From a bacterium (GTDB lineage: Bacteria > UBA8248), in the NCBI GenBank assembly GCA_965199855.1, contig OZ241326.1:2211908-2275907 (forward strand): DNA of 64,000 nt, written 5' to 3'. The notes below the pieces were generated by a model. It saw nothing but the letters and a program-made list of their open reading frames with translations. It did no database searches and was not told where the DNA came from. This document shows positions 515 through 62,101 of this stretch, piece by piece. The translations under genes were made by a program, and so were the position numbers. Numbering within the stretch: the first letter of the stretch is position 1; each line of letters starts with the position of its first letter.

Positions 515-4133
<3,619 letters not shown>

Positions 4134-4259
4134 TCGATATTTCGATTGGGTTGTTGTTCTTTGATACGCCGCTATAATCGGATCGAGCCGATCCTCCAGC
4201 TCGCTTCGGCTGACCAGAAACGCCTTGTTTTCATCGCAGGACCGGCGAAGATTGAAGCC

Positions 4260-6392: not shown

Positions 6393-6742
6393 TCGCTTCT
6401 CATTTTCAGGAGGGGCTCGACACTATACGGGGGACGGGAGGGCGGATTCGACCATGCCATGAAAGCGAACCCGGTCGCCCCTTCCATATCACGTTCGCGC
6501 GGCTGACGCCAACCCGATCGGCGGAAATTTTCGATTCCGATGGAGTTTCGCCCCTCGGCTGTGGTAGGGTGGCCGCGCGTCAGCGGGAGGCGCCGCCCTT
6601 GCTCTCGTCACAGCCGCTTCCCGGTTCTTCGCCCGCGAAACGGCGAACCGGCCCGAAAGGCCCGCCGCCCGCGCGCCGATGAGCAAAGTCCGCAGAATCA
6701 ACCCGTTGCGCTCTCCTCCCCCGGCCCGAGGCACGGCCCGCC

Positions 6743-20015: not shown

Positions 20016-20726
20016 GCGGCGGGCATGGCCAGCAAAGCGGAGCCGGGCGGGGCGAACCGCGCCTTTTCGAGGCTTGCGGAGCGGCGGCCGCGCCGAAAAC
20101 CGGACGCTTCCTCCGAAAATTCCGCGTCCGAATTGTTCCACGTGGAACAATCGCGCGCGCCTGCCCGCATTTGCGCGCATCTGCGCTTCCGCGGGGGCGG
20201 CCGGGTCGGGTTATATTTCCGGCGTGGGGGAATTGCGCCTCCGGAGGGAAGGAAGACGGAAGAATCGGGGACCGGGCGGGATGGTCAAAGGGGTCTCTAA
20301 AAAGGTGGAAAACAGCTCTCTATTTGCGGGATAAGGCCGTGAATTTGTCTGATTTTGCAGAAATTCGTAGACATTCACGCGCGGCTTTTCGGCGAGCGGG
20401 CGGTTCTTCTCCAAACGCCCGGGGAAACGCCTCCGCCCGGCGAATTTTCCCGCGCGGGCGGCTCCCGAATTGTCGGGCGACCCAGGGGGGCGTCCCTATG
20501 GGTGAGGGCGGCTACGGTTCCCGTAGGGGCGGTTCGTGAACCGCCCGCGCGTGGCCACCGATCGAAACGGGACGCATGAATGCGTCCCCTACGGTCGAGG
20601 CAACCGGTTTTCCGGGGGCGGGCGGCGATCCCGCCTTCGTAGGGGGCGCATTCATGCGCCCCGCCCGTCCTTCGGCATGGGGCCGCGGGTTTCATCATTT
20701 CGCAGGAACAACCCCCTGTGGTTGTC
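20006..20726. repeat. Inverted repeat copy B (~721 bp), reverse complement of 13114..13835.
   Basis: Mirrored ORF set identical in amino-acid sequence to copy A. Boundaries were located by manual alignment: inner ends at ccggcgcgtagg, outer ends at the GACAACC…GGTTGTC hairpin. Confidence 0.85.
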
Positions 20727-29290: not shown

Positions 29291-29324
29291 AAAAAAAACG
29301 CCACGCCCCGGGGGGCATGGCGTT
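29291..29324 (-). terminator. Intrinsic terminator / attenuator hairpin in the pyrR 5' leader (about 40 nt upstream of the pyrR start).
   Basis: RNA-sense (minus strand) AACGCCAUGCCCCCCGGGGCGUGGCG followed by UUUUUUUU. It forms an ~10-bp GC-rich stem (one G-U pair) plus an 8-U tract. Confidence 0.65.
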
Positions 29325-29369
29325 CGGACGATGAGCGAAAAGACACCGGGCATCCGCGCTTCCTCCTTC

Positions 29370-29383
29370 GCCGCCTCACGGGA
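29370..29383 (-). promoter_or_regulatory. Candidate PyrR-binding loop (PyrR RNA element) in the pyr operon leader.
   Basis: RNA sense GUCCCGUGAGGCGG matches the PyrR binding-loop core consensus UCCNGNGAGGYU. It lies ~50 nt upstream of the attenuator hairpin, the arrangement of Bacillus-type pyr attenuation. Confidence 0.5.
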
Positions 29384-29487
29384 CGGCATTAAAGGGGAAT
29401 CCCACGCTGTTCTCGTTCGGCGGCGGGCGCGCCGAGACTATTTGGCCGAACCTAGCAGTATTCTCCGCCGGGGGCAAGCGGAATTCC

Positions 29488-39195: not shown

Positions 39196-40566
39196 TCATC
39201 TTTCGCCGAAAAACAAGGGCTTACGATAATCCCGAAGGGAGGGAGCGTCAACCCCCGACGGCGGCGATTCCCGGATGGGCGGCGAGGGGGGCGATCCCCG
39301 GTCATCGCCCCGCGCCCGAGGAGCCGCCGGAAAAGAGACGGGTTCGGGAGAAAAGCCGCCCGCCCGCGCGTGAAAAAACGGTCGGACGCGCGAACCCCCG
39401 CGCGCTATTTCCTCGTTCTTCCCGCTCCGGCGGCTCCGCCCCGCCCGGGGCGGCCGGACGAGCCTGCCGCCCAGAACCACGTGCGCGGCCTCGAGCATCC
39501 GGCTCCCCGCGCGCCGCGCCCCCATGCAGTCCTCGAAGGAGAACCTGCCCTCCTTCATCCGGAACACGGCGACGTCGCCCCGGGCGCCCTTCTTGAGCGT
39601 CCCCACCTCGTCTTTCAGGCCAATCCACTCCGCCGCCGTCTGCGCGCTGAGCCGCACCACCTCGGAGAGGGGAAAGCCGAGCGCCAGAAACTTGCTCATC
39701 AGGGTCGGAAAGTCATACACCGGCCCATGAAGGCAGTGGGCATGGAGGTCGGTGCTCAGGTTGCCCGGCATGAGGCCCTGGGCCATGGCCCTCTCCAGAA
39801 TCTCGAAGCTGAAGCTCGAGCGCCCGTGGGCTACGTCGAGCAGGACGCCCGCATCCCGCGCCTCCCACACCGCGCGGCGCACCCGGCCCCGCCTGTCCAG
39901 AATGTTCTCGCGCCGGCCGTGAAACGCATGGGTGAGCACGTCGCCCGGGCGGAGTTTCCTGAGAATTCTCGAGAGGGGGACGGGCGTATCCCCCACGTGC
40001 GCCATGAGCGGAACCTTGAGGAACTCCGCCGCCTCGAGCGCCGCGTCCAGGGGCCTGGCGCCGCTGCCCTCCACCACGTTGCGGCTCAGGCGCACCTTCA
40101 TGCCGATGAGATGCTCGCGGTTCCTCTCGTAGCACTCCACCGCCCTGTCCACCCGAAGCGCGCGCATGTCGACGTTCTCGCCCAGGCCGTCGATGAGAAG
40201 CCCGCCCTCGGAGATGTTCAGATAGGCGCGAACCGTCGGCCGCGCCTTCTCCAGGAACCATTTCCGGAAGGCCGGATAGGTCTGCGCGCCGGCGCTGCCC
40301 GTGTCCACCGCCGTCGTCACCCCGCGCGCGAGCATCGCCGCCTCCAGGCTCACGCCGTAGTGGGTCACGCCCTCGTAGAAGTGGCAGTGGAGATCGACCA
40401 GGCCCGGTGTGACGATTTTCCCCGCGGCGTTCAGGGCGCGCCTCCCCGCGGGATCGATGCGGGGCGCCACCCTCCGCACGCGGCCGCCGGCGATTTCCAC
40501 GTCCATCGTCCCCTCCAGCCCCTGGGAGGGATCGATGACGTAGCCGCCGCGTATGACGATGTCCAT
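39196..40566 (-). CDS. Amidohydrolase-family metallohydrolase (dihydroorotase/deacetylase-like, EF_0837-type).
   Basis: From [16 protein letters not shown]… HxH metal site (DLHCHF) and downstream His/Asp ligands. The C-terminal ~70 aa are low complexity, so the true stop may be as listed but is uncertain. Confidence 0.65.
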
Positions 40567-40748
40567 CCCCGAAGCTCCCCGGAGAAGCGAGGCGCGCGCC
40601 GGAATCCCCGGCGAGGCCCGGCGCAATCCCGAATCGCCGGGACGCGGCGCCGCTCCGCCGGGCGCGTTGACACGCAATCGCCGCAGGGTGGATCATGGCG
40701 GGCGTCGAGCGCAACCATCATCCCAAACCAGCCTGCGGGAGCCGCGAG

Positions 40749-41921
40749 ATGAGCCTGCAAACCGAAGCCGCGCTTCAGTTCGACCTGGACGACACGCAAA
40801 AGATGCTTCGCCGGACGGTGCGGGAGCTCTCCGAGCGCCACATCGCCCCGCGCGCCGCCGAAATCGACGAGAACGAGGAATACCCCGAAGACATCTATCA
40901 GATGCAGAAGGAGCACGGCCTCCTCGGCATCTTCTTCCCCGAGGAATACGGCGGCGGCGGAATGGGCTTTCTGGGCGGCTGCGTCGCCATCGAGGAGATC
41001 GCGCGCTTCTGCTCGAACTCCCCGCTCTTCATCGTGCTCAACATGCTCTCGAGCCGCGTCATCGACCTGAGCGGCACGCCGGAGCAGAAGACGCATTATA
41101 TGACGGGCCTCGCCAGGGGCGAACTTCGGGGCTCCTACGCCCTCACGGAGCCCCACGCGGGCTCCGACGCCGGGAACATCCGCACGCGCGCCGTCCGGGA
41201 GGGCGAGGAGTGGGTCATCAACGGGACGAAATGCTTCTGCACGGGACCCGACAAGGCGGACTTCATCACCGTCGCCGCCAAGACCGACCCCGGCGCGGGC
41301 GCGCGGGGCATCACCTACTACGTCGTCCCCACGGACGCGCCCGGCTTCAGCATCGACAAGCACGAGCGCAAGATGGGGATGCGCGGCATCTCGACCTGCA
41401 TGCTGCGCTTCGACAGCGTGGCCGTGCCCCTCGAGAACCAGATCGGCGAGCTGAACCAGGGCTTCAGAACCGCGATGATCGGCTTCAACCAGATGCGGCC
41501 CGCCATCGGCGCGCGCGCGGTCGGCCTCGCCCAGGGGTGCCTCGACTACGCCGCGGGCTACGCGAAGGAGCGCGAGGCCTTCGGGAAGCCCATCGCCCGC
41601 CACCAGGCCGTCCAGTTCATGCTCGCCGACATGTTCATGGACATCGAGGCGTCGCGCCTGCTCGTCTATCGCGCCGCCTCGATGGTGGACGCCGGACAAA
41701 TCGGCAAGGAGAACGCCCGGTATTTCTCGACGGCCAAGACCTACGCGGCCGACATGGCGATGAAGTGCGCGATAGACGGCATCCAGGTGCTGGGCGGGGC
41801 GGGCTACATGAAGGATCACCCGCTCGAGCGCTTCATGCGCGACGCCAAGCAGATCCAGATCGTCGAGGGGACGAGCCAGATTCAGCGGATCATCATCGCC
41901 CGCAACCTGCTCGACCTCTAG
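40749..41921 (+). CDS. Acyl-CoA dehydrogenase (paralog 1).
   Basis: From MSLQTEAALQF… ACAD N-terminal, middle and C-terminal domains (…YALTEPHAGSD…GQKCFCTG…QIVEGTSQIQR…). Confidence 0.85.
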   Translation: MSLQTEAALQFDLDDTQKMLRRTVRELSERHIAPRAAEIDENEEYPEDIYQMQKEHGLLGIFFPEEYGGGGMGFLGGCVAIEEIARFCSNSPLFIVLNMLSSRVIDLSGTPEQKTHYMTGLARGELRGSYALTEPHAGSDAGNIRTRAVREGEEWVINGTKCFCTGPDKADFITVAAKTDPGAGARGITYYVVPTDAPGFSIDKHERKMGMRGISTCMLRFDSVAVPLENQIGELNQGFRTAMIGFNQMRPAIGARAVGLAQGCLDYAAGYAKEREAFGKPIARHQAVQFMLADMFMDIEASRLLVYRAASMVDAGQIGKENARYFSTAKTYAADMAMKCAIDGIQVLGGAGYMKDHPLERFMRDAKQIQIVEGTSQIQRIIIARNLLDL

Positions 41922-41933
41922 GAGCGCGCGGAG

Positions 41934-43103
41934 GTGGGGCCGGGGGCGGAGCCGCCCGCCGCGTTCGGGCTGAGCCGGGCGCAGCGAGCGCTGGGAGAGA
42001 GGGTCTATGCGCTGAGCCGCCGCCGCGTCGCGCCCCGCGCCGCCGACATCGACGAAAGCGGGGAATACCCCGAGGATATTTTCCAGCTCCTGAAGTCCCG
42101 CGGCCTCCTCGGCCTCTACGTCCCCGAAGAATACGGCGGGGCGGGCCTCGGCGTCCTGGAGACGTGCGTCGCCATCGAGCAGATGGCGCGCTTCTGCTCG
42201 AACTCTCCCCTTTTCTTCTCCGTCCACCTGCTCGCCACCCGCGCCGTCGCCATAGGCGGAACCGGGGCGCAGAAGAGCGTCTGGCTCCGCGGCGTAGCCC
42301 GGGGCGAGCTGCGCCCCGCCTTCTCGCTCACCGAGCCGCACGCGGGCTCCGACGCCGCGAACATATCGGCGCGCGCGGCGCGGGAGGGGGACTCGTGGGT
42401 CATCAACGGCCAGAAGTGCTACTGCACCGGCGCGAGCGTCGCCGACTTCCTCACCGTGGCGGCGAAGACCGAGGCCGGGGCGGGGGCGCGCGGCGTCTCC
42501 TTCTTCATCGTTCCCAAGGGCGAATTCCGGGTGGGCCGCCGCGAGAGGAAGATGGGGATGCGGGGAATCCCCACCTGCGAGGTGTTTTTGGAGAACGCCC
42601 ACGTCCCCCTCGAAAACATCATCGGCGATCGGGCGACGGGCTTCAGAACCGCCATGCTCGGCTTCAACCAGGCGCGGCCCGCCATCGGCGCGCGCGCGGT
42701 CGGCCTCGCCCAGGGGTGCCTCGACCACGCCGCGGGCTACGCCAAGGAGCGCGAGGCCTTCGGGAAGCCCATCGCCCGCCATCAGGCCGTCCAGTTCATG
42801 CTCGCCGACATGTTCATGGACGTCGAGGCGTCGCGCCTGCTCGTTTACCGCGCCGCCTCGATGGTGGATAATGGGCGCTATCAAAAGGAGGACGCGCATT
42901 TCATCTGCGCCGCGAAGTGCTTCGCGTCCGACGCGGCCATGAAGGCGGCCGTGGACGCGGTTCAGACCCTGGGCGGGGCGGGCTATACGAGGGATCACCC
43001 GCTCGAGCGGTTTATGAGAGACGCCAAGCAGCTGCAAATCATCGAGGGGACGAACCAGATTCAGCGCATGGCGATCGCCCGGAATCTGCTGGGCCTGAAC
43101 TGA
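41934..43103 (+). CDS. Acyl-CoA dehydrogenase (paralog 2, tandem duplicate).
   Basis: 389 aa. Long stretches identical to paralog 1 (RPAIGARAVGLAQGCLD…AAGYAKEREAFGKPIARHQAVQFMLADMFMD). Confidence 0.85.
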   Translation: MGPGAEPPAAFGLSRAQRALGERVYALSRRRVAPRAADIDESGEYPEDIFQLLKSRGLLGLYVPEEYGGAGLGVLETCVAIEQMARFCSNSPLFFSVHLLATRAVAIGGTGAQKSVWLRGVARGELRPAFSLTEPHAGSDAANISARAAREGDSWVINGQKCYCTGASVADFLTVAAKTEAGAGARGVSFFIVPKGEFRVGRRERKMGMRGIPTCEVFLENAHVPLENIIGDRATGFRTAMLGFNQARPAIGARAVGLAQGCLDHAAGYAKEREAFGKPIARHQAVQFMLADMFMDVEASRLLVYRAASMVDNGRYQKEDAHFICAAKCFASDAAMKAAVDAVQTLGGAGYTRDHPLERFMRDAKQLQIIEGTNQIQRMAIARNLLGLN

Positions 43104-43133: not shown

Positions 43134-43754
43134 ATGAGCCGGACCATTGAAATTCTCACGCCCACCTCGTTCGTCCGCGCGGGCGATCATCCCCTGGCGG
43201 CGCGGCCGGGAGAGCTCGGCGGACTCAGAATCGGCTTTTTCCACAACAACAAGCCGAACGCCGACGCCCTCCTGGAGCGCATCGAGGAGCTCCTCGCGCG
43301 GGAGGACGAAACCCTCCGCTTCGTCCGCTGGGGAAAGCCGAACCCGACGCTGCCGGAGGCGCGCCTCGGCGAGTTCATCAAGCAGGTGGACGCGGCCGTC
43401 TGCGCGGTGGGCGACTGAGGCAGCTGCACGTCGTGGAGTATCCACGACGCGGTGGAGATGGAGAAAGCGGGGATTCCGACGGCCACGTTCTGCTCCAGCG
43501 AATTCTCCGCCCTGGGCGCGAACGAGCGGGTCGCCCTGGGGATGCCGGGCCTTCCGATAGTCGTCGTGCCGCACCCCGTGGGGGGGATTCCGCCCGAACG
43601 GGCGCGCGCCCTGGGGGACGCGGCGCTGGACGAGGTTCGGCGCGTCCTCACGGAGGACGCGGAATCGCTGCGAAGGGAATACCGCGAGCGCGCCTACGCC
43701 CCGCCCCGCCGGACGGTGCGCCACAAGGCGCTTTTCGCCCGGGGGTCGGCGTGA
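43134..43754 (+). CDS. Putative selenoprotein, UGSC-type (UxxC redox motif). The gene reads through an in-frame UGA at 43416..43418.
   Basis: ORFs 43134..43418 and 43452..43754 share one frame, separated only by TGA. Joined, the translation reads …AAVCAVGD-U-GSCTSWSIHDAVEMEKAGIPTATFCSSEF… The TGA is followed after 10 nt by the hairpin CGUCGUGG-AGUAU-CCACGACG. Confidence 0.7.
43428..43449 (+). ncRNA. SECIS-like mRNA hairpin (cis element), 11 nt downstream of the in-frame UGA.
   Basis: Perfect 8-bp stem cgtcgtgg/ccacgacg with a 5-nt loop AGUAU containing GU. Position and size match bacterial SECIS requirements. Confidence 0.6.
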
Positions 43755-43800
43755 GACGCCGGACGGACGGGAGCGCGCGCGGCGCAAGCGGGAGCGCGGC

Positions 43801-44892
43801 ATGAGCGATCCCTCCTCCGAAGCGCCTCCAGAAGCGGCGTCCCTCCCGAGCGAGCGGGTGAAGGTTCGGGACGCGCCCGAGGCGCTCGCGCGTCTCCTCG
43901 AGGCGAGGGGATGGGGCGACGGCCTGCCCGTCGTTCCCCCCACGCCCGGGCGCGTCGCCCGCATGGTGGAGGGGGCGGGGCTGGCCGCTGGGGAGGAAAT
44001 CGGCCGGATGCCGCCCCGCCAGGGAGTCGTCACGGTCGAGGCGCTCGCCGTCAACGCCGTGATGGCCGGATGCCTCCCGGCCTACATGCCCGTTCTCGTG
44101 GCGGCGGCGCGGGGGGCGCTCCAGCCGGAATTCTCGCTCCACGCGCTCCAGGCGACGACCCACCCGGTGGCGCCCCTGATCATCGTGAACGGCCCCGTCG
44201 CCGCGAGAATCGACATGAACGCGGCGTATGGATGCTTCGCCCCCGGAAACCGGGCGAACGCGACGATTGGCCGCGCGATGCGCCTGACGCTCCTGAACGT
44301 AGGCGGGGCGAGCCCGGGCGTTCTGGATCGCGCCACCCAGGGCTCGCCCGCGAAATACGCATTCTGCATCGCCGAGAACGAGGAGGAATCCCCCTGGGAG
44401 CCGCTGCACGTCGAGCGCGGCTTCGCGCCCGGGGAGAGCGCCGTCACGGTCGTGGGCTGCGAGGGGCCCCACAACGTCAACGATCACGTGAGCCACGCGG
44501 CGGAGGGCATTCTCGCCGCCGCCGCCGACACGATGTCCGTCATGGGCGGCAACAACTTCTATCTGAGGGGCGAGCCGCTCCTCGCGCTCGGCCCCGAGCA
44601 CGCGGCGACGATAGCGGGGGACGGGCTGTCGAAGGCGGACGTGAAGCGAAGGATTTTCGAGCTCGCCCGAAAGCCCGCGCGCCAGCTCCGGCGCGGCGCC
44701 ATGTGGGGGATGCAGACCTGGGGGGAGGAGATAGCGAGAAACGAGGGAGATGACGACTACGAGATTCCGCTTCTGGATCGGCCCGAAGACCTCATCGTCA
44801 TCGTGGCGGGCGGCGCCGGCAAGCACTCCTCCTACCTGCCGACGTTCGGCCCCACGCGCTCGGTGACCACCCGGGTCGATTCGCCGGCCTGA
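43801..44892 (+). CDS. Conserved hypothetical protein (363 aa), immediately downstream of the selenoprotein.
   Basis: Clean ORF with normal codon bias. No family recognised with confidence from sequence alone. Confidence 0.55.
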   Translation: MSDPSSEAPPEAASLPSERVKVRDAPEALARLLEARGWGDGLPVVPPTPGRVARMVEGAGLAAGEEIGRMPPRQGVVTVEALAVNAVMAGCLPAYMPVLVAAARGALQPEFSLHALQATTHPVAPLIIVNGPVAARIDMNAAYGCFAPGNRANATIGRAMRLTLLNVGGASPGVLDRATQGSPAKYAFCIAENEEESPWEPLHVERGFAPGESAVTVVGCEGPHNVNDHVSHAAEGILAAAADTMSVMGGNNFYLRGEPLLALGPEHAATIAGDGLSKADVKRRIFELARKPARQLRRGAMWGMQTWGEEIARNEGDDDYEIPLLDRPEDLIVIVAGGAGKHSSYLPTFGPTRSVTTRVDSPA

Positions 44893-45069
44893 GCGAAAGC
44901 GGGAAAACGAGGCTTCGTCCCCGCCGGGAGCGCCCCCCCTCTCGCCCGGCTTCACGGATTCCCCAAAATCCCGCTCCGCGCGCGGCCCGCGAATTGCGTC
45001 TTCGCGTTGCCCGCGGCTTCGCCTCCGTGCTAGATTCCCGCTTCCGTAGAGCCTCAGAGGGAGAAAGCC

Positions 45070-45471
45070 ATGCCGAAGCAGCAGATCGACTCGGAGAAGG
45101 TGAGGCCGGTGGCCGCGTATTCCACGGGCTGGAAGGTGTCGAACGGGCATCTCGTCATGCTGGCGGGCCAGGTGGCGACCGACACGGAGGGCCGCACCGT
45201 CGGCGGAGACGACATCAAGGCCCAGGCGCGGCAGGTCTATGAGAACGTCAAGGCCGCGCTCGAGGCCGCCGGCGCCGGAATGGAGGACGTCATCCGCCTC
45301 ACCGTCTATCTCACGGATCGGGCGAATTTTCCGGGAAGCGCGGAGGTGCGGCAAGCCTACTTCAGCCCGCCCTATCCGGCGAGCACGCTCCTCATCGTGA
45401 GCGGACTGGCGAACCCGGAATGGCTCATCGAAATCGACGCCGTCGCCTTCGTGGAGGACGGGACGCCGTGA
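45070..45471 (+). CDS. RidA/YjgF/TdcF-family reactive-intermediate (enamine/imine) deaminase.
   Basis: 133 aa. …AAYSTGWKVSNGHLVMLAGQVA… and C-terminal …RLTVYLTD…PASTLLIVSGLANPEWLIEIDAVA match the YjgF signature. Confidence 0.85.
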   Translation: MPKQQIDSEKVRPVAAYSTGWKVSNGHLVMLAGQVATDTEGRTVGGDDIKAQARQVYENVKAALEAAGAGMEDVIRLTVYLTDRANFPGSAEVRQAYFSPPYPASTLLIVSGLANPEWLIEIDAVAFVEDGTP

Positions 45472-46325
45472 GAGGCGGCAGGGCGGTTTCCGAGACGCTC
45501 GTTCTCGTGAAGGGGGGCGGCGACCTCGCCACCGGCGCGGCGCACCGCCTGCGCCGCTCGGGCTTTCCCGTGATGATGACGGAAATCGAGCGTCCGACCA
45601 TGGTCCGCCGCGCCGTCTCCTTCGCCGAATGCCTCTACGCCGGCGAATGGCGGGTGGAGGGCGTGGCTTCCGCGAGGGCGGAGGGCGGCTCCCTGGAGGA
45701 GAAAATCGCCGGCGCGCGCGCGCTGATGGAGGCGGGCGCCGTTCCCGTGATGGTCGATCCGCGCGCCGAGGCGGTCGCCCGCGTCCGGCCCGCCGTCGTG
45801 ATCGACGCGATTCTCGCCAAGCGAAACCTCGGCACCCGCATCGAGGACGCCGAGGTGGTCATCGGCCTGGGGCCCGGCTTCACGGCGGGGGTCGATTGCC
45901 ACGCCGTCATCGAGACCGCCCGGGGGCACGACCTGGGGCGGGTGATACTCGAAGGGGCGGCGAAGCCGGACACGGGCGCGCCGGGCGCCATCGCGGGCTA
46001 CGCCGCCGAGCGGCTGCTGCGCGCCCCGCGCGCCGGCGCGTTCGCCTCCGCCGCCCGCATCGGGGACGCGGTGCGGGCGGGACAGGCCGTCGCCCGGGTG
46101 GACGGGGAGGAGGTGACGGCCCGCATCGACGGCGTCCTGCGCGGCCTGCTCAGGGACGGCATCGAGGTGAGCGCGGGCTTCAAGGTGGGCGACGTCGACC
46201 CCAGGGCCGAGCCTTCCCACTGCGTGACGATATCGGACAAGTCGCGCGCCGTCGGCGGCGGCGCGCTCGAGGCCGTCATGATGTTCCTGTTCGGCGTCTC
46301 CCCGGCCGCGGAGCGCGCGAATTGA
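45468..46325 (+). CDS. YqeB-family protein (selenium-dependent molybdenum hydroxylase system accessory protein).
   Basis: N-terminal LVLVKGGGDLATGAAHRL dinucleotide-fold motif and overall similarity to the YqeB (TIGR03309-type) family. A likely GTG start overlaps the ridA stop (GTGA). The ORF track start 45420 overlaps ridA. Confidence 0.6.
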   Translation: MRGGRAVSETLVLVKGGGDLATGAAHRLRRSGFPVMMTEIERPTMVRRAVSFAECLYAGEWRVEGVASARAEGGSLEEKIAGARALMEAGAVPVMVDPRAEAVARVRPAVVIDAILAKRNLGTRIEDAEVVIGLGPGFTAGVDCHAVIETARGHDLGRVILEGAAKPDTGAPGAIAGYAAERLLRAPRAGAFASAARIGDAVRAGQAVARVDGEEVTARIDGVLRGLLRDGIEVSAGFKVGDVDPRAEPSHCVTISDKSRAVGGGALEAVMMFLFGVSPAAERAN

Positions 46326-47206
46326 GTCCCGACATTCTGGCGGAAACGGTGGAAAGCGGCGCCTACCGCATCGGGCGCAGCGAAATCCCGATCAACCAGG
46401 CGAACGGCAACGCCTTCGTCCCCCCCGCGCAGTTCTATCTGGCGGCGGGCGACGCGCTCGAGCGCATCGCGTGGGCGGTGAGCCAGAACCTCCCCGTCCT
46501 GCTCGTCGGAGAGACCGGCGTCGGCAAGACGCTCTCGGTGCGCTACCTCGCCCACATGACGAACAACGGCTTCAGGCGCGTGAACCTCAACGGCATGACC
46601 ACGGTCGATGAATTCGTGGGCAAGCTGATGATCAACGAGCAGGGCACCTACTGGGTGAACGGCATCCTGATCGACGCGATGCAGTCGGGAGACTGGCTGC
46701 TCATCGACGAGATCAACGCCTGCCTGCCCGAAATCGCCTTCTGCCTCCACAGCCTGCTCGACGACGACCGCATGATCGTCCTCTCGGAGTATGACGGCCG
46801 CGTCGTCAAGCCCCATCCGGACTTCAGGCTCTTCGCCAGCATGAACCCCCACGAGGACAGGAGATACGGCGGCACGAAGCCCCTGAACGAGGCGCTTCTG
46901 GATCGCTTCCCCGTCACCGTGAGGATGGACTACCTGCCCTTCGAGGCGGAGGTCGAGGTCATCATGCGGCAGAGCGGGAACGGCGACGAGGAGCTCGTCC
47001 GGCGCATGGTGCGCGTGGGCCACGACGCGCGCGAGGCCATGAGGAACGAAAAGGTGTTCTGCACCTTCAGCACCCGGCGCCTGATTGACTGGGCGCGCAT
47101 GGCGGCGCGGTTCGACCCCATGGAGGCCGCCGTCTCGACCATCTTCAGCAAGGTCAACTCGTTCGACGCCAAGGTGCTCGAGGACATCGTGGACAACCAC
47201 TTCTAG
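46322..47206 (+). CDS. MoxR/CoxD-like AAA+ ATPase (AAA_5, CbbQ/NirQ/NorQ family).
   Basis: Walker A LLVGETGVGKT, Walker B LLIDEINA, and MoxR-type sensor regions. A probable TTG start overlaps the yqeB stop (TTGA). It lies in the long 45629..47206 ORF. Confidence 0.75.
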   Translation: MSPDILAETVESGAYRIGRSEIPINQANGNAFVPPAQFYLAAGDALERIAWAVSQNLPVLLVGETGVGKTLSVRYLAHMTNNGFRRVNLNGMTTVDEFVGKLMINEQGTYWVNGILIDAMQSGDWLLIDEINACLPEIAFCLHSLLDDDRMIVLSEYDGRVVKPHPDFRLFASMNPHEDRRYGGTKPLNEALLDRFPVTVRMDYLPFEAEVEVIMRQSGNGDEELVRRMVRVGHDAREAMRNEKVFCTFSTRRLIDWARMAARFDPMEAAVSTIFSKVNSFDAKVLEDIVDNHF

Positions 47207-47221
47207 CCGGGAGACGCAGGC

Positions 47222-48991
47222 ATGGAGCGCCGACGCGCCCGCCTCGAGACCCTCGCGCAGGTGACGGCGCGCGACTACGGCCTCGCCCTGCTGTTCGGCT
47301 CCCGGACGGAGACCGGGGACGACGCCGTCCTCGTCGAGGACCCGGAGCGGACCCTGGCGCGCCTGGGCGGCGGCCTCGACGACGAGCGCGTCCTGCGATA
47401 CCAGAAGGGCATGACGCTCATCGAGGTGGCCCGCAGGCTCCAGGGGACGCTTCGCTGGGCGGGCCGCGCGGCCCTCGCCAACCGGGAGACGCCGGGCCTT
47501 TTCCACCTCTGGCGCGCCCTCGAGGACGCCAGATGCGAGAACCGCCTCGCCGAGTCGCTGCCCGGCACGAGAAAGAATTTCCGCGCCTTCGTCCGTCCCG
47601 CGATCGAGGACGCCGAGCGAAGCCACGCGCGGGGGGAGCTCCCCCTGCTTCTCCAGATTCAATGGGGCATCTACCTCGCCGGCGTCGGCCAGACGCCCGG
47701 CGCCGCCTCCTCAAGGCCCGGGGATTTGCCCTCGGCCTGGTTCGATTCCGTCATCGCCCAGATTCTTCAGAGGCTCGTCCCGATCATCGACCGCGCCTGC
47801 GCGGCCAAAGAGCCGAAGACCGCCTTCGACTGCGCGAACGAAATCTACGACGCCGTGCGGCGCTTCCTCACCGAGGAGCAGCTCGCGCAGATGCGCGAGA
47901 GCGAGGAGCTCTCGGAGCTTCCGGATGAAATTCTGGAGAAAATCGAGAACCAGAAACTCCAGGGGGAGGAGTCCGAGTCGCCGGAGGCGCTCCACCCGGA
48001 GGCGCTCGACGAGGTGGACGCGGACGAGGGCGAGCAGGTCGAGCTCACGCCCGAGGAGCTCGCCGCCCTGGGCCGCTGGGCGTCTCCCTGGTTCGAGATG
48101 GAGGGCGGCGGGAAGGAAGTCCACCCGACGGCGGAGCATCCCGACGAGCGCACCATCGTCCTGCCCCCGGAGGGCAAGGCGGAGGAATACGCGGCGATCA
48201 TGGACGGCGCGGGCAGCCACATCAAGGTGCTGGCGTGGAAGCTCACGCAGATCATTCAGGAGAGAGCCTACGCCCGCTTCAGCGGCTCGCACCGCTCCGG
48301 CAAGCTGAACGTCCCGAAGCTCTGGAAGCAGCGCCTGGGCAAATTTCATCTTTTTCACCGCAAGGAGGAGCCCGAGAAGCTCGACGTCTGCTTCACCCTC
48401 CTCGTGGACGAGAGCGGCAGCATGAACCGCGAATCGAAATACGTAGCCGCCAGGGAGGCGACCGTGTTCTTCGCGGAAGTCCTCGACCGGCTGGACGTGC
48501 CCTTCGAGGTGATCGGCTACTCCACCGAGAGCTCGGAGGCGGCCATGGCGGCCGCGCTCGGCCACATCCCCGCCTTCAAGTTCAGGCACATCCGGCACTC
48601 CCCCCTTCAGCACCGCATCTACAAGGGCTTCGAGGACGCCTTCCCCCAGGTCAAGAACCGTCTCGTCAACATTTATCCGCGCTTCAACAACTGGGACGAG
48701 GAGCATCTGCTGTTCGCCTACCGAAGGCTCAGCCAGCGGCCCGAGGAGGAGAAGATCATCATCATCACCTCGGACGGCCAGCCCAACGGCGACGCGGCCC
48801 ACCTCGTGAGCGCGGTCGGCCGCCTCCAGGCGCTCGGCGTGCGGATCATCGGCGTCGGCGTGGTGGACCCCTTCGTCGAGCAGATCTACCCGAACCACAT
48901 CGTGGTGCAGGACCTCTCCCAGCTCTCCACGGAGCTGGTGAACATTCTGCGGCGCGAGCTGCTCGGGGGGGCGGAGGGCCGCCCTTGGTAG
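47222..48991 (+). CDS. von Willebrand factor A (VWA) domain protein, CoxE/NorD-like partner of the MoxR ATPase.
   Basis: 589 aa. C-terminal VWA domain with MIDAS motif (LLVDESGSM…T…SDG). Has the typical MoxR-VWA gene-pair architecture. Confidence 0.8.
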   Translation: MERRRARLETLAQVTARDYGLALLFGSRTETGDDAVLVEDPERTLARLGGGLDDERVLRYQKGMTLIEVARRLQGTLRWAGRAALANRETPGLFHLWRALEDARCENRLAESLPGTRKNFRAFVRPAIEDAERSHARGELPLLLQIQWGIYLAGVGQTPGAASSRPGDLPSAWFDSVIAQILQRLVPIIDRACAAKEPKTAFDCANEIYDAVRRFLTEEQLAQMRESEELSELPDEILEKIENQKLQGEESESPEALHPEALDEVDADEGEQVELTPEELAALGRWASPWFEMEGGGKEVHPTAEHPDERTIVLPPEGKAEEYAAIMDGAGSHIKVLAWKLTQIIQERAYARFSGSHRSGKLNVPKLWKQRLGKFHLFHRKEEPEKLDVCFTLLVDESGSMNRESKYVAAREATVFFAEVLDRLDVPFEVIGYSTESSEAAMAAALGHIPAFKFRHIRHSPLQHRIYKGFEDAFPQVKNRLVNIYPRFNNWDEEHLLFAYRRLSQRPEEEKIIIITSDGQPNGDAAHLVSAVGRLQALGVRIIGVGVVDPFVEQIYPNHIVVQDLSQLSTELVNILRRELLGGAEGRPW

Positions 48992-49011
48992 CGGAAGGCG
49001 GCCTCGCGCGG

Positions 49012-49812
49012 ATGATCGGCGCCCGAGCGGGGCGGATCGTCGCGGCGGTCGGGGCGGGGGGGAAAACGAGCCTGCTCACGGCGCTCGCCCGGGAGTTTCA
49101 CGCCCGAAGCGGCGCGCCCGCCCTCCTCACGACGACCACCAGAATTTTCGCGCCCCTGCCGGAGGAGGGGATTCCCCTCGCCCTGGGCGACGCCGCCGCC
49201 CTCTCGAGGAGGCTGCGCCCCTACATGAGAGCCTGCGGCGTCTCCTGGCTCGCCCGCGGACGCGAGGGCCGCGCGCCGGTTCCGGGCCGGGAGGGCGAGC
49301 GCCGCATGAAGCTGCGCGGCTTCGCGCCCTCCGAAATCGAGGGATTGCGTCTCGCGGAGGGCCTCACCCTCATCGAGGCGGACGGGGCGAGGCGCCTGCC
49401 CGTCAAGGCGCCCGGCGCGCGGGAGCCCGTCCTGCCCGAAGGCGTGGACGCCGTGCTGGGCGTCGTGGGGCTGGACGCCCTGGGCGCGCCCCTGGACGAG
49501 GCCCATGCGTTCCGCCCGGAGCTGCTCTCGCGGATATGCCGCCTGGACGCCGGCGCGGAGATCACGGCGGAGGCGATCGGGGCGCTGTGCGCGCACCCCG
49601 AGGGGCTGTTTCGCAAGGCGGACGGCGGCGCGCGCAGGTGGATCGTCCTCAACAAGGCCGATTTGGAAGCCTCGCTGGAAAAACGAAGAAAGATCGCCTA
49701 TACTATCCGGGAAATGGCGGGAAAGCCCCATGGGCCGGCGGACGGGGTTCTCCTGACCTCCTGCCTGAAGAACAGGCCGGAAGTTTTGCTGCGAATCGGG
49801 CCGGACGCCTGA
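49012..49812 (+). CDS. YqeC-family P-loop protein (probable selenium-dependent hydroxylase accessory protein).
   Basis: 266 aa from MIGARAGRIVAAVGAGGKTSLLTALA… with a P-loop GAGGKTS. Matches the YqeC (TIGR03172-type) family. Confidence 0.65.
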   Translation: MIGARAGRIVAAVGAGGKTSLLTALAREFHARSGAPALLTTTTRIFAPLPEEGIPLALGDAAALSRRLRPYMRACGVSWLARGREGRAPVPGREGERRMKLRGFAPSEIEGLRLAEGLTLIEADGARRLPVKAPGAREPVLPEGVDAVLGVVGLDALGAPLDEAHAFRPELLSRICRLDAGAEITAEAIGALCAHPEGLFRKADGGARRWIVLNKADLEASLEKRRKIAYTIREMAGKPHGPADGVLLTSCLKNRPEVLLRIGPDA

Positions 49813-49842
49813 GAGGAGGCGGCCCGCCTGCGCGGAGGAGAG

Positions 49843-50988
49843 ATGAGCGAGGACGTTTTCAGGGAAATGGCGAGGATGAAGGAGAAGGGGCAGGCGGGCG
49901 CGCTCGCCACCGTCGTGGCCCGCAAGGGCTCCGCGCCCATGAGCGGCGACGCGAAGATGCTCGTGCGCGAGGACGGCAGCGCCGAGGGCACCGTCGGGGG
50001 CGGCTGCCTGGAGGCCGAGGTCTGGGAGACCGCGATGAGCGTCCTCGAAACGGGCGCGCCCGAGAAGCTCTCCTTCGACCTCACCCAGAAGGAGGCGGAG
50101 GACAGCGGCCACATCTGCGGCGGCGTGGTGGAGATACTGGTGGAGCCGCTCCGGGCGTTTCCCCGGGAGCTGCTCGATGAGATCAACCGCGTGAAAAACC
50201 GGGGCGGAAGTGCCGCGCTGGCGACCATCGTCCAGCCGGGGGCGCTCGACATCCCGAAGCCCGAGGCCGGGAAAATGCTCTTCAGGCGCGACGGCAGCTC
50301 CGTGGGGGAAATTCCGCGCTATTCGGCGGAAGTCTGGGCGGAGAGCGCGCAGGTGATTCGCCAGGGCAGCCCCACCCTCCTGCACTTCAGCCAGGGCGCC
50401 GCGCGCGGCGGAGGAAAGAAGCCCGCGCCCGGCGAGGCGACCGAAATTTTCGTGGAGCCCATCTCCGGCCAGCCGCTCGTCTATATCTTCGGCGGCGGGC
50501 ACGTATCCTTCTGCGTCGCGCAGGCGGCCTGGCTCGCCGGCTTCCGGGTCGCCATCGTGGAGGACAGACCCTCCTTCGCCAACAAGGAGCGCTTCCCGAT
50601 GGCCGAGGCGTTCCACGTGGGCGATTTCCCGGAAGTTTTCAGGGAAATTCCGGTGGACGAGGCGGACTACCTGGCCATCATCACCCGGGGCCACGCGAAC
50701 GACGAGGTCGTCCTCGAATGGGCGATGAAGACGAAGGCGCGCTACATCGGGATGATCGGCTCGAAGAGCAAGGTGCTGCTCACCTACCGCCATCTTCAGG
50801 AGAAGGGCTTCGCGCGGAGCGAGCTCATCGAGCGCGTCCACGCGCCCATCGGCCTGGACATCGGCGCCGACACGCCGGGCGAGATCGGAATCGCCATCGC
50901 CGCCGAGTTCGTCCGCCATCGCCGCCGGGGCGAGGCGGAAAGCGAGGGCGCGGGCAGCAAGCGGGTGCGCCTGGGAAGAAAGGCGTAA
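49843..50988 (+). CDS. xdhC: XdhC/CoxI-family molybdenum hydroxylase maturation factor.
   Basis: 381 aa. XdhC_CoxI N-terminal domain (…ALATVVARKGSAPMSGDAKMLV…GTVGGGCLE…) plus a Rossmann-like XdhC_C (…VYIFGGGHVS…). Confidence 0.8.
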   Translation: MSEDVFREMARMKEKGQAGALATVVARKGSAPMSGDAKMLVREDGSAEGTVGGGCLEAEVWETAMSVLETGAPEKLSFDLTQKEAEDSGHICGGVVEILVEPLRAFPRELLDEINRVKNRGGSAALATIVQPGALDIPKPEAGKMLFRRDGSSVGEIPRYSAEVWAESAQVIRQGSPTLLHFSQGAARGGGKKPAPGEATEIFVEPISGQPLVYIFGGGHVSFCVAQAAWLAGFRVAIVEDRPSFANKERFPMAEAFHVGDFPEVFREIPVDEADYLAIITRGHANDEVVLEWAMKTKARYIGMIGSKSKVLLTYRHLQEKGFARSELIERVHAPIGLDIGADTPGEIGIAIAAEFVRHRRRGEAESEGAGSKRVRLGRKA

Positions 50989-51032: not shown

Positions 51033-51845
51033 ATGAGCCACCTGCGCGCGCTCGCCGCGGCGGCGACGGACTTCCTCATCCCCCCGAAATGCCTTTTGTG
51101 CGCGAGCGCCCTGGAAATCGGCGGCGCGCGGACGATATGCGCGCCCTGCGACGAGGCGCTCGATCGCTTCGAGCCGCCCTGGTGCCCCAGGTGCGGCGCG
51201 CCCTTCCCCTCCCACGCCGCCCTGTCGCACTCCCCCGCCCACCACTGCGCGGAGTGCGCGGAAAACGTCTTTCACTTCGACGGGGCGCGCGCCGTCGGCG
51301 CCTTCAAGGGCTCTCTCCGGGAGCTGGTCCACCTGTTCAAATACGGAGGCGTCACCAAGCTGGCGCACGAGTTCGCCCCCCGGCTCGCCGCGCTCGCCGC
51401 GGACGAGCTGGGCGTCGGGCGGGACGATCCGGACGTGATCGTAACCCACGTGCCGATAGCGTCCGCGCGCTGGCGGGAGCGGGGCTTCGATCAAACGCGC
51501 CTGCTCGCGCTCCGGACGGCGAAGAGCCTCGGAGCGCCGCACGCGGACTGTCTGGAGCGCGCGAAGGAGACCCGTCCGCAAACCGGGCTCTCCGCGAGCG
51601 AGCGGCGCCGCAACGTACGGGGCGCCTTCCGGGCGCGCCCGAAGGCGGCGCGGATGCTCGAAGGGAAGACGTGCATCCTCCTCGACGACGTCATCACCAC
51701 CGGCTTCACCGCCTCGGCCTGCGCCCGCGAGCTCAAGCGGGCGGGCGCCGCCGCCGTGCACGCGCTCACCATCTGCCGCTCGCGAGGGCCCGCGCCCCCG
51801 CCGCGCGCGGAGGGGGTCAACGAGAGGGCTACGCATAACCTGTAA
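51033..51845 (+). CDS. ComF-family protein (double zinc ribbon plus phosphoribosyltransferase domain).
   Basis: From MSHLRAL… N-terminal CxxC…CxxC pairs and a C-terminal PRTase motif ILLDDVITTGFTASA. Confidence 0.8.
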   Translation: MSHLRALAAAATDFLIPPKCLLCASALEIGGARTICAPCDEALDRFEPPWCPRCGAPFPSHAALSHSPAHHCAECAENVFHFDGARAVGAFKGSLRELVHLFKYGGVTKLAHEFAPRLAALAADELGVGRDDPDVIVTHVPIASARWRERGFDQTRLLALRTAKSLGAPHADCLERAKETRPQTGLSASERRRNVRGAFRARPKAARMLEGKTCILLDDVITTGFTASACARELKRAGAAAVHALTICRSRGPAPPPRAEGVNERATHNL

Positions 51846-51873: not shown

Positions 51874-52680
51874 ATGCAGGATCGATACACGGGCGACGTA
51901 GGGGATTTCGGCAAATACGGACTGCTCCGCGCCATCACCCGGCCCGGGATTACGAAAAAAGACGGCCAGGAGACATTGAGCCTCGGCGTCGTGTGGTATC
52001 GCCATCCCGACGAGAAAGACACGAACGACGGCGAGCATATCGACTATCTCGGCCCTTCCGGGCGCGAGAATTTTCGGAAGTGCGATCCTGAACTATATGA
52101 TTGCCTGAGCAAGATCGTCAGATATGACTCCAAAACCAGGAAGGCAAAGGGTCGCAGGGCGATATCGAAGATCGAGAATAGCGAGATACTCGGTTCGCAA
52201 ACTCGTTTTTTCGGCAGGCGATGTCCTTATGACGCGGATGCTCGTAAAAAATGGCGCCGAGAAGCGTTGAACGAAATGAAGGGATGCGATTTGGTATTCC
52301 TCGACCCGGACAACGGGCTCAGGTGCAACCAGAACCTTGACAGCGGAAAACACGCCTACCTTGAGGAAGTCTTGAGCTTTGTTCTTCAAGGCAGCGCAGT
52401 AATTTTCTATCATCATCCTGACAGGTGAAAAACGCATAATGAACAAATCAGAAAACTCGCTCAATATATTGCTCGCAAGTTGGATAAAAATCACCGCGTA
52501 TCCGCTTTCCGTTACCGCAGAGGGAACTCCCGGGCGTTTTTCATCATTTGGCCGCGGGATCGGCAGAAAGTATTCAAGCCCCGCATGAAGGCGATTCGTG
52601 ATGGCCTGTGGGGCCGGGAATGTCGCTTTGAACTCACGGCGCGTTCCATCTCCGGCAAAAGCAGGGGCAACCCGAGTTAG
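51874..52680 (+). pseudogene. Hypothetical gene in a low-GC islet, interrupted by a single in-frame TGA (52426..52428). Candidate pseudogene.
   Basis: ORFs 51874..52428 and 52480..52680 are in the same frame with no other stop between them. No SECIS-like hairpin follows this TGA. GC content here is far below the genome background. Confidence 0.4.
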
Positions 52681-60785: not shown

Positions 60786-60948
60786 GCCGCTGCGGGGGAG
60801 AGGCGGCCGCGCTTCCCCAGGTTGCCTTTTTTATATTTTGAAGTCCAGGTCGATTTACGCACCCTCAATGCCCTGCAACCTGTCTCGCAGGGCCGCTCGC
60901 TGTTCAGGGGACATAGCCGCCGCTAACTTCTTGAATTCATGTATTTCT

Positions 60949-61422
60949 TTATCCTTTTTCATCCGAATAGGGCATTCTATCGAATCTCTTCAGTTCGACG
61001 TTGATCTTATCAATACGGAGGCAGTCTCCGCGCGATCTGACCATAAACTGATACTGATTTTCTCCTCCTAGTGGAGCTCGAGAAAATTCGTTTCTCGCAT
61101 TTACGAATGGAGCCAAACGTCCGCAGAACGCCTCAAGACTCCGCGTTTTAAGCTGGGCGATGACGAGCCTTCCCTCAATACGCGCTTGTTCTTCATCTTT
61201 CATCATCTCTTCTGGTATGCCGTGCCAATCCTTCTTTCCACCCAGAACCCACCAGTTTCGGCCTGATTCATCTTGCAACCACTTTTGGCGTTTCCCTACT
61301 GGCGTCAGGGTGACGTCGAATTTTGCGTGAATAGCATCTATGACGGGCCGCCTATCAAAATTGTTGAATTTTTCCGATGACTTCTTCATGCTTTCCTCTC
61401 CCAAGCGGCTTGAAAGCTCCAT
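60949..61422 (-). CDS. Hypothetical protein (157 aa) in a low-GC islet.
   Basis: ORF in a ~45-50% GC segment. No recognisable family. Start overlaps the upstream gene's stop by 1 codon spacing. Confidence 0.4.
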   Translation of the reverse strand: MELSSRLGEESMKKSSEKFNNFDRRPVIDAIHAKFDVTLTPVGKRQKWLQDESGRNWWVLGGKKDWHGIPEEMMKDEEQARIEGRLVIAQLKTRSLEAFCGRLAPFVNARNEFSRAPLGGENQYQFMVRSRGDCLRIDKINVELKRFDRMPYSDEKG

Positions 61423-61424
61423 CG

Positions 61425-61955
61425 CTAGTCCTCCTGTCTCTCTTCGTCCTCCTCTCCGGATTGATTGAGGGTCGCCGCGTCCAGCCCCGCTCCCAGGTTG
61501 TCGGCCAGCTCACCCCAGCCGTCCATAAAATCTCTTGCATCGTTGAACACGACGAAGGCAGCGCCGCCAGCCTCATAGAGCTGAGGAGCCGCCGCGAGTA
61601 GAGCGGCATCATCAAGGCTGGATATGTTGTCCGCCACAATCCGACCGACTGGCCCTTGAGTGTCGCAGACGGAATAGCTGGCCCCATTTTTGACGGGGAT
61701 CCAGCTCCGGGGCGGCCGTATGGATCGGCTCAACAGGACGCCGAACGCGAGCTTGGCCAGCACCGGAATCTTCTTGCCCGGCTTGAACCAACCGTTTATA
61801 GTGGTTTCGGGCACATCCAGAACCGCGCTGAGATTGCGTTGCCAGCCGCGTCGCCCGTATCTCCGCTCGAAAGCGGACCTGAGATCCATATCTTTCACAT
61901 AGTTGGTCAGCCCTTCCCGGAAATCAGCGTCGGCGATCATTCTCAAGTTGCCCAT
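61425..61955 (-). CDS. Hypothetical HTH-containing protein (176 aa) in a low-GC islet.
   Basis: Predicted helix-turn-helix around …LSAVLDVPETTINGWFKPGKKIPVLAKLAFGVL… with an acidic C-terminal tail. It is the upstream gene of a two-gene unit. Confidence 0.4.
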   Translation of the reverse strand: MGNLRMIADADFREGLTNYVKDMDLRSAFERRYGRRGWQRNLSAVLDVPETTINGWFKPGKKIPVLAKLAFGVLLSRSIRPPRSWIPVKNGASYSVCDTQGPVGRIVADNISSLDDAALLAAAPQLYEAGGAAFVVFNDARDFMDGWGELADNLGAGLDAATLNQSGEEDEERQED

Positions 61956-62101
61956 TCCATCAATCTCCCGCGTAAAATTACGAATCTCATTCTAAAAACT
62001 CTTGTAATACACGAAATTAAGTTTGTCAAGAATTAAAATAACATTTATTTAAGGAATTTCGGGTTTCAAGGGATTCCCCGGAATGAAATCAAAGATTTCC
62101 C

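Follow-up and report, generated by a model that had tools for sequence, protein, structure and literature searches.

The 64,000-nt window analysed here is a stretch of contig OZ241326.1, and the row of eight genes at positions 43134-50988, all on the plus strand, probably represents two functionally separate selenium units that are neighbours in one lineage. The first unit (module A, 43134-44892) consists of the gene for a UGSC-family selenoprotein and that for a partner protein of 363 amino acids (aa), hereafter P363. The second (module B, 45070-50988) consists of the genes for RidA, YqeB, a MoxR-class ATPase, a protein with a VWA domain, YqeC and XdhC, which resemble the maturation genes of selenium-dependent molybdenum (Mo) hydroxylases (SDMHs). 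The features of the row are the following:

43134..43754, plus strand: UGSC-family selenoprotein of 206 aa, with the in-frame TGA at 43416-43418 as selenocysteine (Sec) codon in the motif D-U-G-S-C-T-S-W
43429..43449, plus strand: selenocysteine insertion sequence (SECIS) hairpin CGUCGUGGA-GUA-UCCACGACG, 9 bp, starting 10 nt after the UGA (centroid fold)
43801..44892, plus strand: P363, 363 aa, partner of UGSC; no Pfam or NCBIfam match
45070..45471, plus strand: RidA/YjgF-family protein, first gene of the module B unit in this genome; PF01042, 95.8 bits (cutoff 27.3)
45468..46325, plus strand: YqeB, short form; TIGR03309, 347.6 bits (cutoff 220), model positions 1-255 of 256
46322..47206, plus strand: MoxR-class AAA+ ATPase of the CbbQ/NorQ/CobS subgroup; AAA_5, 98.4 bits, and CbbQ_C, 37.4 bits
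47222..48991, plus strand: CobT-like VWA protein of 589 aa; CobT_C, 63.5 bits, and VWA, 25.6 bits
48985..49812, plus strand: YqeC, P-loop protein (GAGGKTS), starting at TTG 48985 or ATG 49012
49843..50988, plus strand: XdhC-family chaperone for insertion of the molybdenum cofactor (Moco); PF02625, 90.8 bits, and PF13478, 127 bits

Families were assigned in hidden Markov model (HMM) searches against Pfam and NCBIfam using the curated cutoffs. All eight gene calls made earlier from the sequence alone (hereafter the sequence-only reading) passed these tests, and the overlaps it had described at RidA/YqeB (GTGA) and YqeB/MoxR (TTGA) are real. The ratio of nonsynonymous to synonymous substitution (dN/dS) was between 0.10 and 0.30 for all ten genes compared between the window and the related loci L090 and L004, which reflects purifying selection and implies that the ten genes are maintained.

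The separation into two modules emerged from the comparison of gene neighbourhoods. The surroundings of P363 were collected from 80 species-level genome loci and two strain-level contigs (82 loci). UGSC adjoins P363 in 77 of these, with both genes on one strand in every case and mostly no more than ~150 nt apart, and three of the five exceptions have P363 at the edge of a contig. The pair loci span haloarchaea, Thaumarchaeota, Bacilli, Chloroflexota, Binatia, Methylomirabilota, Acidimicrobiales and Proteobacteria. YqeB, MoxR, VWA, YqeC and XdhC were encountered near the pair only in L001-L004, which constitute the lineage of the window; in none of the 78 loci outside L001-L004 was YqeB, YqeC or XdhC present within 10 kb of P363.

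The surroundings of the maturation genes were followed via the VWA protein, whose subfamily comprises around 64 full-length proteins (34-99% identity), and context classes were derived from the gene tables of seven VWA members and from 70 metagenomic loci. Class I (VWA identity of at least 53%) includes 12 complete and 8 partial loci, among which the window, and shows the order acyl-CoA dehydrogenase (ACAD), optionally UGSC-P363 and/or RidA, and then YqeB-MoxR-VWA-YqeC-XdhC. In L086, L093-L096 and L099-L101 the cluster ACAD-(RidA)-YqeB-MoxR-VWA-YqeC-XdhC is found at the equivalent chromosomal site, but without UGSC and P363. The case of L086 (VWA identity 67%) is the most explicit, as its neighbourhood is that of the window: it holds rodZ, the 3-deoxy-D-arabino-heptulosonate 7-phosphate (DAHP) synthase gene, a divergent amidohydrolase gene, two ACAD genes and RidA-YqeB-MoxR-VWA-YqeC-XdhC, continues with pdxA, a thiamine pyrophosphate (TPP) enzyme, alcohol dehydrogenases and cca, and contains neither UGSC nor P363. 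In a neighbour-joining tree of MoxR and VWA the pair occurs in the subclade of the window and in L092, and is missing from L095, the sister of L092, as well as from two further subclades. Conservation of the genes as a set, which had been proposed as a check, was thus seen for YqeB-MoxR-VWA-YqeC-XdhC in class I, and not for UGSC-P363, which is not tied to them outside this lineage.

The sequence-only reading had placed the selenoprotein and the 363-aa protein at the head of the cluster and suggested that the selenoprotein might be a redox partner or selenium-delivery component. In its strongest form this would make the row from the ACADs to XdhC one operon of one integrated system, in which UGSC and P363 have been recruited as the redox/selenium-delivery front end. 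Such a system would agree with the shared strand and short gaps, with the position of the pair directly before RidA/YqeB in two class I subclades (the window with L003, L004, L090 and L091, and L092), and with a U-x-x-C selenoprotein that would be chemically suited to the transfer of selenium or sulfur. Nevertheless, we consider it very unlikely. In 73 loci of other phyla the pair occurs without YqeB, YqeC or XdhC within 10 kb, and at least eight class I loci hold the maturation genes without the pair. Where the pair proteins are fused, the fusion partners are each other or a thioredoxin-reductase (TrxR)-like domain and never a maturation protein, and the usual acyl-CoA and organic-acid neighbours of the pair (see below) explain its place without YqeB. 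Moreover, the row is broken in nearest relatives by a divergent TetR-like gene between P363 and RidA (L003, 11272-11916; L004, 11158-12030; both minus strand), which is not present in the window. The pair therefore appears independent, internally fused in some genomes and separable from the cluster, and its role as head of the cluster was not upheld.

Some observations count against a strict separation. The gap between P363 and RidA measures 177 nt, and inside module B the genes overlap by 4 nt or are separated by at most 30 nt; within the 177 nt no terminator-like site was found and inspection by eye brought up only a weak, sub-threshold promoter-like match, so that the boundary between the modules is set by the comparative evidence. 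Transcripts of module A could thus conceivably extend into module B in this genome. In L092, which belongs to a subclade other than that of the window, the pair lies directly 5' of YqeB (~80 nt, same strand, without RidA). This arrangement means that the juxtaposition has persisted or recurred, and a lineage-specific link stays conceivable. Two separate units still form the reading that we consider likely, and the picture of a selenoprotein heading a selenium-cofactor cluster would then be one of juxtaposition and not of a system.

The selenoprotein of module A passes both models that describe the UGSC family (NF041046, 136.4 bits, cutoff 125; PF24696, 161.8 bits, cutoff 25). The same hairpin is found 3' of the UGA in the homologues of the ~40 other genomes shown, with compensatory changes (e.g. 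GUCAUGG/CCAUGAC and GUCGUGC/GCAUGAC), and the 80 in-frame stops at the Sec codon are TGA without exception. Considering the covarying hairpin and the fact that all 80 in-frame stops are TGA, 43134-43754 is, judged from these signals, a genuine selenoprotein gene. Among the 75 UGSC genes that adjoin P363 in the 80 species-level loci, 72 specify Sec and three Cys at this position. Five genomes (L036, L043, L051, L055 and L062) carry two UGSC-type genes near one P363, each with its own TGA, and the second copy is followed by a different 3' hairpin (GCCCGC...GCGGGC).

No significant relatives of UGSC, or of YqeB, were retrieved from the PDB. The region around the Sec residue shows a weak similarity to GrdB (UGSC residues 84-176 against GrdB residues 336-416, E 1.3e-4), which suggests a chemistry related to that of the selenoprotein-B reductases. 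The similarity is restricted to the Sec surroundings, and the scores against the GrdB/PrdB models (TIGR01917/TIGR01918) are far too low for membership (21 bits against 602, and 15 against 65).

P363 belongs to a wholly unannotated family with at least 7,991 homologues, or 7,348 representatives at 50% identity. The residues that are invariant in the alignment include C91, H121, C189, H224, D228, H229, H267 and H342. The AlphaFold2 model has a mean predicted local distance difference test (pLDDT) score of 84.5 and a predicted template modelling (pTM) score of 0.87, and as neither the model nor the sequence gave a convincing relative among the solved structures in the PDB, P363 apparently adopts a new fold, as far as can be told from the prediction.

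The functional link between UGSC and P363 is made explicit by fusions of the two proteins. Full fusions exist (e.g. P0326, with CGSC in place of UGSC), as do Sec-type fusions that gene callers cut short at the UGA. Tandem P363-P363 proteins of ~700-740 aa were also found (P0321, P0345, P0355, P0407 and P0418), and in a single case (P0343, 695 aa) P363 is followed by a C-terminal TrxR-like flavoprotein domain with a CAVC motif. A third gene that is universal around UGSC-P363 was not found in the 82 loci. The most frequent neighbours in the 78 loci outside L001-L004 encode a luciferase-like monooxygenase (16), a TctC receptor (15), a family III CoA-transferase (12), a short-chain dehydrogenase/reductase (11), an enoyl-CoA hydratase (8) and MmgE/PrpD (8); an ACAD is found in 12 of the 82. 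This gene company, like the two ACADs located 5' in the window, points to a role in organic-acid/acyl-CoA metabolism. UGSC is among the most abundant selenoprotein families in aquatic environments and has been without a function since 2008. It now gains an obligate partner, fusion evidence for electron supply of the thioredoxin-reductase type and a metabolic neighbourhood in which a substrate can be sought.

Module B contains the marker genes on which the functional association depends. Phylogenetic profiling had led to the proposal of YqeB and YqeC as SDMH markers (Haft and Self 2008, PMC2276186). Both calls of the sequence-only reading, including the connection of the two families to the labile-selenium trait, were borne out: YqeB and YqeC exceed their equivalog cutoffs (for YqeC TIGR03172, 164.7 bits, cutoff 73, next to PF19842, 118.1 bits, cutoff 27.6) and thus do not belong to unrelated families. 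Zhang et al. 2008 reportedly also defines the SDMH accessory gene set. YqeB lacks the XdhC-like N-terminal domain, and its GTG start overlaps the stop codon of RidA; the overlap between VWA and YqeC exists only if TTG 48985 is the start of YqeC. XdhC has both domains of the Moco chaperone family, as proposed earlier, and scores below the two specific equivalogs, TIGR02964 for the XdhC of xanthine dehydrogenase (111.8 against 161.6 bits) and NF045664 (303.8 against 350), the latter, 'XdhC family aldehyde oxidoreductase maturation factor', being the closest NCBIfam model. RidA scores below TIGR00004 (79.9 bits, cutoff 106.25) and is a variable component that only some class I loci have 5' of YqeB.

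The MoxR and VWA genes, 15 nt apart, encode a MoxR-class AAA+/VWA pair. The ATPase, with the AAA_5 and CbbQ_C domains, has an intact Walker A (GETGVGKT) and Walker B (LLIDE) motif, and the VWA protein an intact metal ion-dependent adhesion site (MIDAS), which is invariant in the alignment (D396-x-S398-x-S400, T435 and D518). The closest solved relatives of the ATPase are CobS (4e-27), CbbQ (5e-22) and NorQ (1e-20), and a profile of the VWA protein against the PDB retrieved CobT (3e-28). One might thus suppose that the two are the cobaltochelatase subunits CobS and CobT of aerobic B12 synthesis, located by accident among yqeB and yqeC, the more so as TIGR01650 and TIGR01651 are the top NCBIfam matches and one homologue is named 'cobaltochelatase CobT-related protein' by NCBI. 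This seems extremely improbable given the scores, which are far below the equivalog cutoffs (TIGR01650, 84.8 against 558.6; TIGR01651, 51.4 against 759.1), and the gene context: neither CobN nor another cob gene turned up in the window or in the gene tables that were read for related loci, the pair is coupled to YqeB/YqeC here, and Mo-hydroxylase genes directly precede it in 30 distant loci. We therefore rejected the cobaltochelatase reading, and the finding warns against naming these proteins accordingly.

The distant loci connect the pair to Mo hydroxylases directly. In class II (VWA identity 42-45%; L083, L084, L088 and L104) YqeB-MoxR-VWA occurs as a triad, and in L088 and L104 a CoxM/L/S-type hydroxylase is encoded ~6 kb downstream of it. 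In class III (VWA identity 34-39%) genes for the subunits with flavin adenine dinucleotide (FAD) and iron-sulfur (FeS) clusters and for a split Mo subunit lie directly 5' of MoxR-VWA in 30 of the 30 loci with upstream sequence, XdhC is found 6-8 kb downstream in around 12 of the 30, and YqeB and YqeC are absent. MoxR-VWA is thus tied by synteny both to the structural genes of Mo hydroxylases and to YqeB. Since ~30 distant loci place the pair right after CoxM/S/L-type genes, it is plausibly a hydroxylase-maturation chaperone with a role like that of CoxD/E. The sequence-only reading had called it CoxD/CoxE-like. In terms of role this is plausible, given the 30 of 30 loci, and in terms of family it is not correct: the VWA protein scores 15.9 bits against VWA_CoxE (PF05762, cutoff 26.4), and the pair is of the CobS/CobT and NorQ/NorD kind.

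The hydroxylase itself is not encoded in the window. Annotation, in which essentially every open reading frame (ORF) with the genome's signature of GC content at third codon positions and the gaps between them were compared with Pfam and NCBIfam, revealed neither a Mo-hydroxylase subunit nor selD, selA or selB in the 64 kb. A six-frame tblastn search of the whole window with the FAD, FeS and Mo (CoxM/S/L-type) subunits of related loci gave no match, ARAGORN found no tRNA and Rfam no Moco riboswitch in the window. The earlier observation that structural subunits and selD are lacking was thus correct, but the suggestion that this is unusual was not. In genomes with Sec or selenouridine systems selD is located far from the YqeB gene (PMC2276186), and in C. 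difficile yqeB lies apart from yqeC, from selD and from any hydroxylase gene, while its deletion phenocopies selD mutants on xanthine and urate (PMC11448449). Given these precedents of dispersed yqeB, selD and hydroxylase genes, their absence here is to be expected and is no anomaly. Because the genome decodes Sec, as indicated by the UGSC gene, selD presumably resides elsewhere in it.

We regard module B as a likely maturation operon for a Mo hydroxylase encoded elsewhere in the genome, and a number of points speak against it. None of the class I loci, 12 complete and 8 partial, was found to have a hydroxylase within 10 kb, and none is present in the 64 kb here. The best 120 matches of the large subunit of L088 in a set of 5.8 billion proteins, at 53-55% identity and from a family of more than 7,000, did not include one on a contig of the sizes seen in this lineage, an outcome that still allows for a hydroxylase elsewhere in the genome. 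In class I an ACAD always lies directly 5' of YqeB, or of the UGSC-P363/RidA insert (L086, L090-L098, L101 and the window), an adjacency that holds down to 53% VWA identity. Deletion of yqeC in C. difficile gave no phenotype (PMC11448449), which makes the case for a role of YqeC weak, and the mechanistic steps themselves are drawn by analogy.

The absence of a hydroxylase, the constant ACAD and the scores of XdhC below both specific equivalogs could alternatively mean that module B is an orphan or has a non-canonical client, i.e., that class I organisms lack a selenium-dependent Mo hydroxylase and that the proteins mature another enzyme. This might be another Moco enzyme or an enzyme of the ACAD pathway, such as a hydroxylase/reductase of a different type that acts on CoA-thioesters. 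We regard this as unlikely: YqeB, YqeC and XdhC are under purifying selection, every visible client beside an orthologous MoxR-VWA or YqeB-MoxR-VWA is a CoxM/S/L-type hydroxylase, and dispersed hydroxylase genes are normal for the trait (PMC11448449).

In the reading that we favour, module B would be a translationally coupled accessory operon that matures a xanthine-oxidase-family Mo hydroxylase, whose existence and identity we infer, encoded outside the window. XdhC would hold Moco and insert it, and YqeB, possibly aided by the P-loop protein YqeC, would draw on SelD-made selenophosphate to put the labile selenium ligand in place. The VWA/MIDAS adaptor would tether the CobS-like AAA+ ring to the folded apo-hydroxylase, and ATP hydrolysis would open the active site, in parallel to CoxD/CoxE in carbon monoxide (CO) dehydrogenase and NorQ/NorD in nitric oxide (NO) reductase. 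Module A would be a separate redox enzyme of two components with thiol/selenol chemistry, and its transcription is probably shared with that of the two ACADs located 5' of it. The U-x-x-C of UGSC would most likely cycle between the selenol/thiol and the selenenylsulfide state, with re-reduction by a thioredoxin-type system as suggested by the fusion, and P363 may carry the substrate site for a small molecule. As the pair is habitually found near acyl-CoA genes it would have come to lie beside the ACADs, which in this clade happen to abut the maturation operon.

Authors in the field themselves describe the SDMHs as the least understood case of selenium incorporation; genetic support is limited to yqeB, and a mechanism is lacking. 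A more novel possibility, which we rate below even, is that YqeB-MoxR-VWA, together with YqeC and XdhC, constitutes an engine in which the CobS/CobT-like AAA+/MIDAS motor docks on the folded Mo hydroxylase and drives the ATP-dependent insertion of YqeB-delivered selenium. If this engine is real, it would add a CoxD/E-like step never described for these enzymes, and the coupling in class I and II would yield both a protein handle and, for the first time, a candidate mechanism for this use of selenium. The YqeB-AAA+-VWA unit in any case offers a concrete hypothesis, ATP-driven opening for selenium or Moco insertion, and a set of proteins for pull-downs.

The genes directly surrounding the row, which serve as context, are the following:

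39196..40530, minus strand: amidohydrolase/deacetylase-family metallohydrolase, divergent; NF006689, 366.8 bits against a cutoff of 371; syntenic context only
40695..41921, plus strand: acyl-CoA dehydrogenase ACAD1; Pfam Acyl-CoA_dh_N/M/1; context for both modules
41934..43103, plus strand: acyl-CoA dehydrogenase ACAD2, paralogue with 64-66% identity to ACAD1
51033..51845, plus strand: ComF/GntX-like phosphoribosyltransferase, 3' of XdhC; context only, not conserved at that position in L086

The NCBIfam models nearest to ACAD1 are those of acryloyl-CoA reductase and cyclohexane-1-carbonyl-CoA dehydrogenase, both below cutoff. The divergent amidohydrolase is kept in L003, L004 and L086; its identification as SsnA was rejected, since it matches the generic family NF006689. 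A 184-aa ORF of lower GC content just after the ComF-like gene (51874-52428) has no NCBIfam match.

The remaining genes of the window are largely of a housekeeping nature and include carAB, pyrB, pyrC, pyrR, two surA-like genes, mfd, rodZ, the DAHP synthase gene and pdxA, next to a split TPP decarboxylase, alcohol dehydrogenases, the CCA-adding enzyme, lepA, htrA, gdh, transaldolase, icd and fumarase. The sole Rfam match in the window is a PyrR-binding leader (RF00515, 56.3 bits, 29291-29399, minus strand) located 5' of pyrR-pyrB-pyrC-carA-carB. A restriction-modification island of low GC content (2841-6422, minus strand; GC 0.54-0.56 against ~0.69 for the genome) contains a type I restriction-modification/MADS-like specificity subunit (2841-4259) and a DNA methyltransferase (4260-6422; MAD2-like, 288.7 bits, below cutoff), and is probably a horizontally acquired defence locus. 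A second patch of lower GC content (~0.61, 60800-62100) holds only short unannotated ORFs. Finally, a perfect inverted repeat of 722 nt (13114-13835 and 20005-20726, 100% complementary) brackets 6,169 nt with genes for transaldolase, glutamate dehydrogenase, an ABC-2 transporter pair and an HD phosphohydrolase. Its arms lack ORFs with the genome's codon signature, and it could represent an invertible segment, a composite element or an assembly artefact.

With respect to known systems, the selenoprotein is an ordinary member of the UGSC family (PMC2398784; NF041046; PF24696), with which it shares the U-G-S-C motif, both models and the combination of TGA and SECIS. The family was named in the Global Ocean Sampling paper of 2008 (Zhang and Gladyshev 2008, PMC2398784), and the 'UGSC/Unknown_1' fusion mentioned there is consistent with P363 as the partner. 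New compared to that description are the near-universal adjacency to P363, the lack of a fold relative of this partner in the PDB, the fusion of P363 to a TrxR-like domain and the acyl-CoA/organic-acid gene company. GrdB/PrdB resemble module A in the weakly similar U-x-x-C region and in the organization as a selenoprotein with a separate substrate-activating subunit and, as the TrxR-like fusion would suggest, a thioredoxin-system reductant. They differ in that UGSC scores far below their cutoffs and is only ~200 aa long, and in that P363 lacks similarity to GrdE or PrdA.

Module B shares with the SDMH accessory set YqeB and YqeC far above the cutoffs, the adjacent XdhC-family gene and an organism that uses selenium, as it decodes Sec. 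As is the case in C. difficile, neither selD nor the structural genes of a hydroxylase are located nearby. The differences are the CobS-like AAA+ and CobT-like VWA genes wedged between yqeB and yqeC and translationally coupled, an order (yqeB-AAA+-VWA-yqeC) that is not found in the E. coli, E. faecalis and C. difficile loci described in the papers that define or test this set, as well as the short YqeB without a fused XdhC-like domain and the absence of an adjacent YgfJ/MocA gene. The AAA+/VWA pair between yqeB and yqeC, and more generally the conserved YqeB-MoxR-VWA unit, does look new compared to these earlier descriptions.

The nearest functional analogue is the CoxD/CoxE/CoxF set for the [CuSMoO2] site of the CO dehydrogenase of Oligotropha carboxidovorans (PMC4240915, PMC3471820). 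Both sets encode an AAA+ protein together with a VWA/MIDAS protein and a member of the XdhC family, and the Cox set acts post-translationally on a folded Mo enzyme of the xanthine-oxidase family. However, the ATPase of the window has the AAA_5 and CbbQ_C domains and the VWA protein is of the CobT_C type, the partners are YqeB/YqeC and not the copper- or sulfur-handling CoxF/CoxG, and coxMSL genes are not adjacent. The nearest sequence relatives are NorQ/NorD, CbbQ/CbbO and CobS/CobT. These MoxR-AAA+/VWA pairs each remodel a dedicated client or provide it with its metal (PMC9976466; preprint 10.64898/2026.07.21.739949), and they share the domain layout and the intact MIDAS. Where these pairs serve NO reductase, Rubisco or CobN, no such client is encoded near the pair described here, and its partners are instead Mo-hydroxylase genes or YqeB, YqeC and XdhC.

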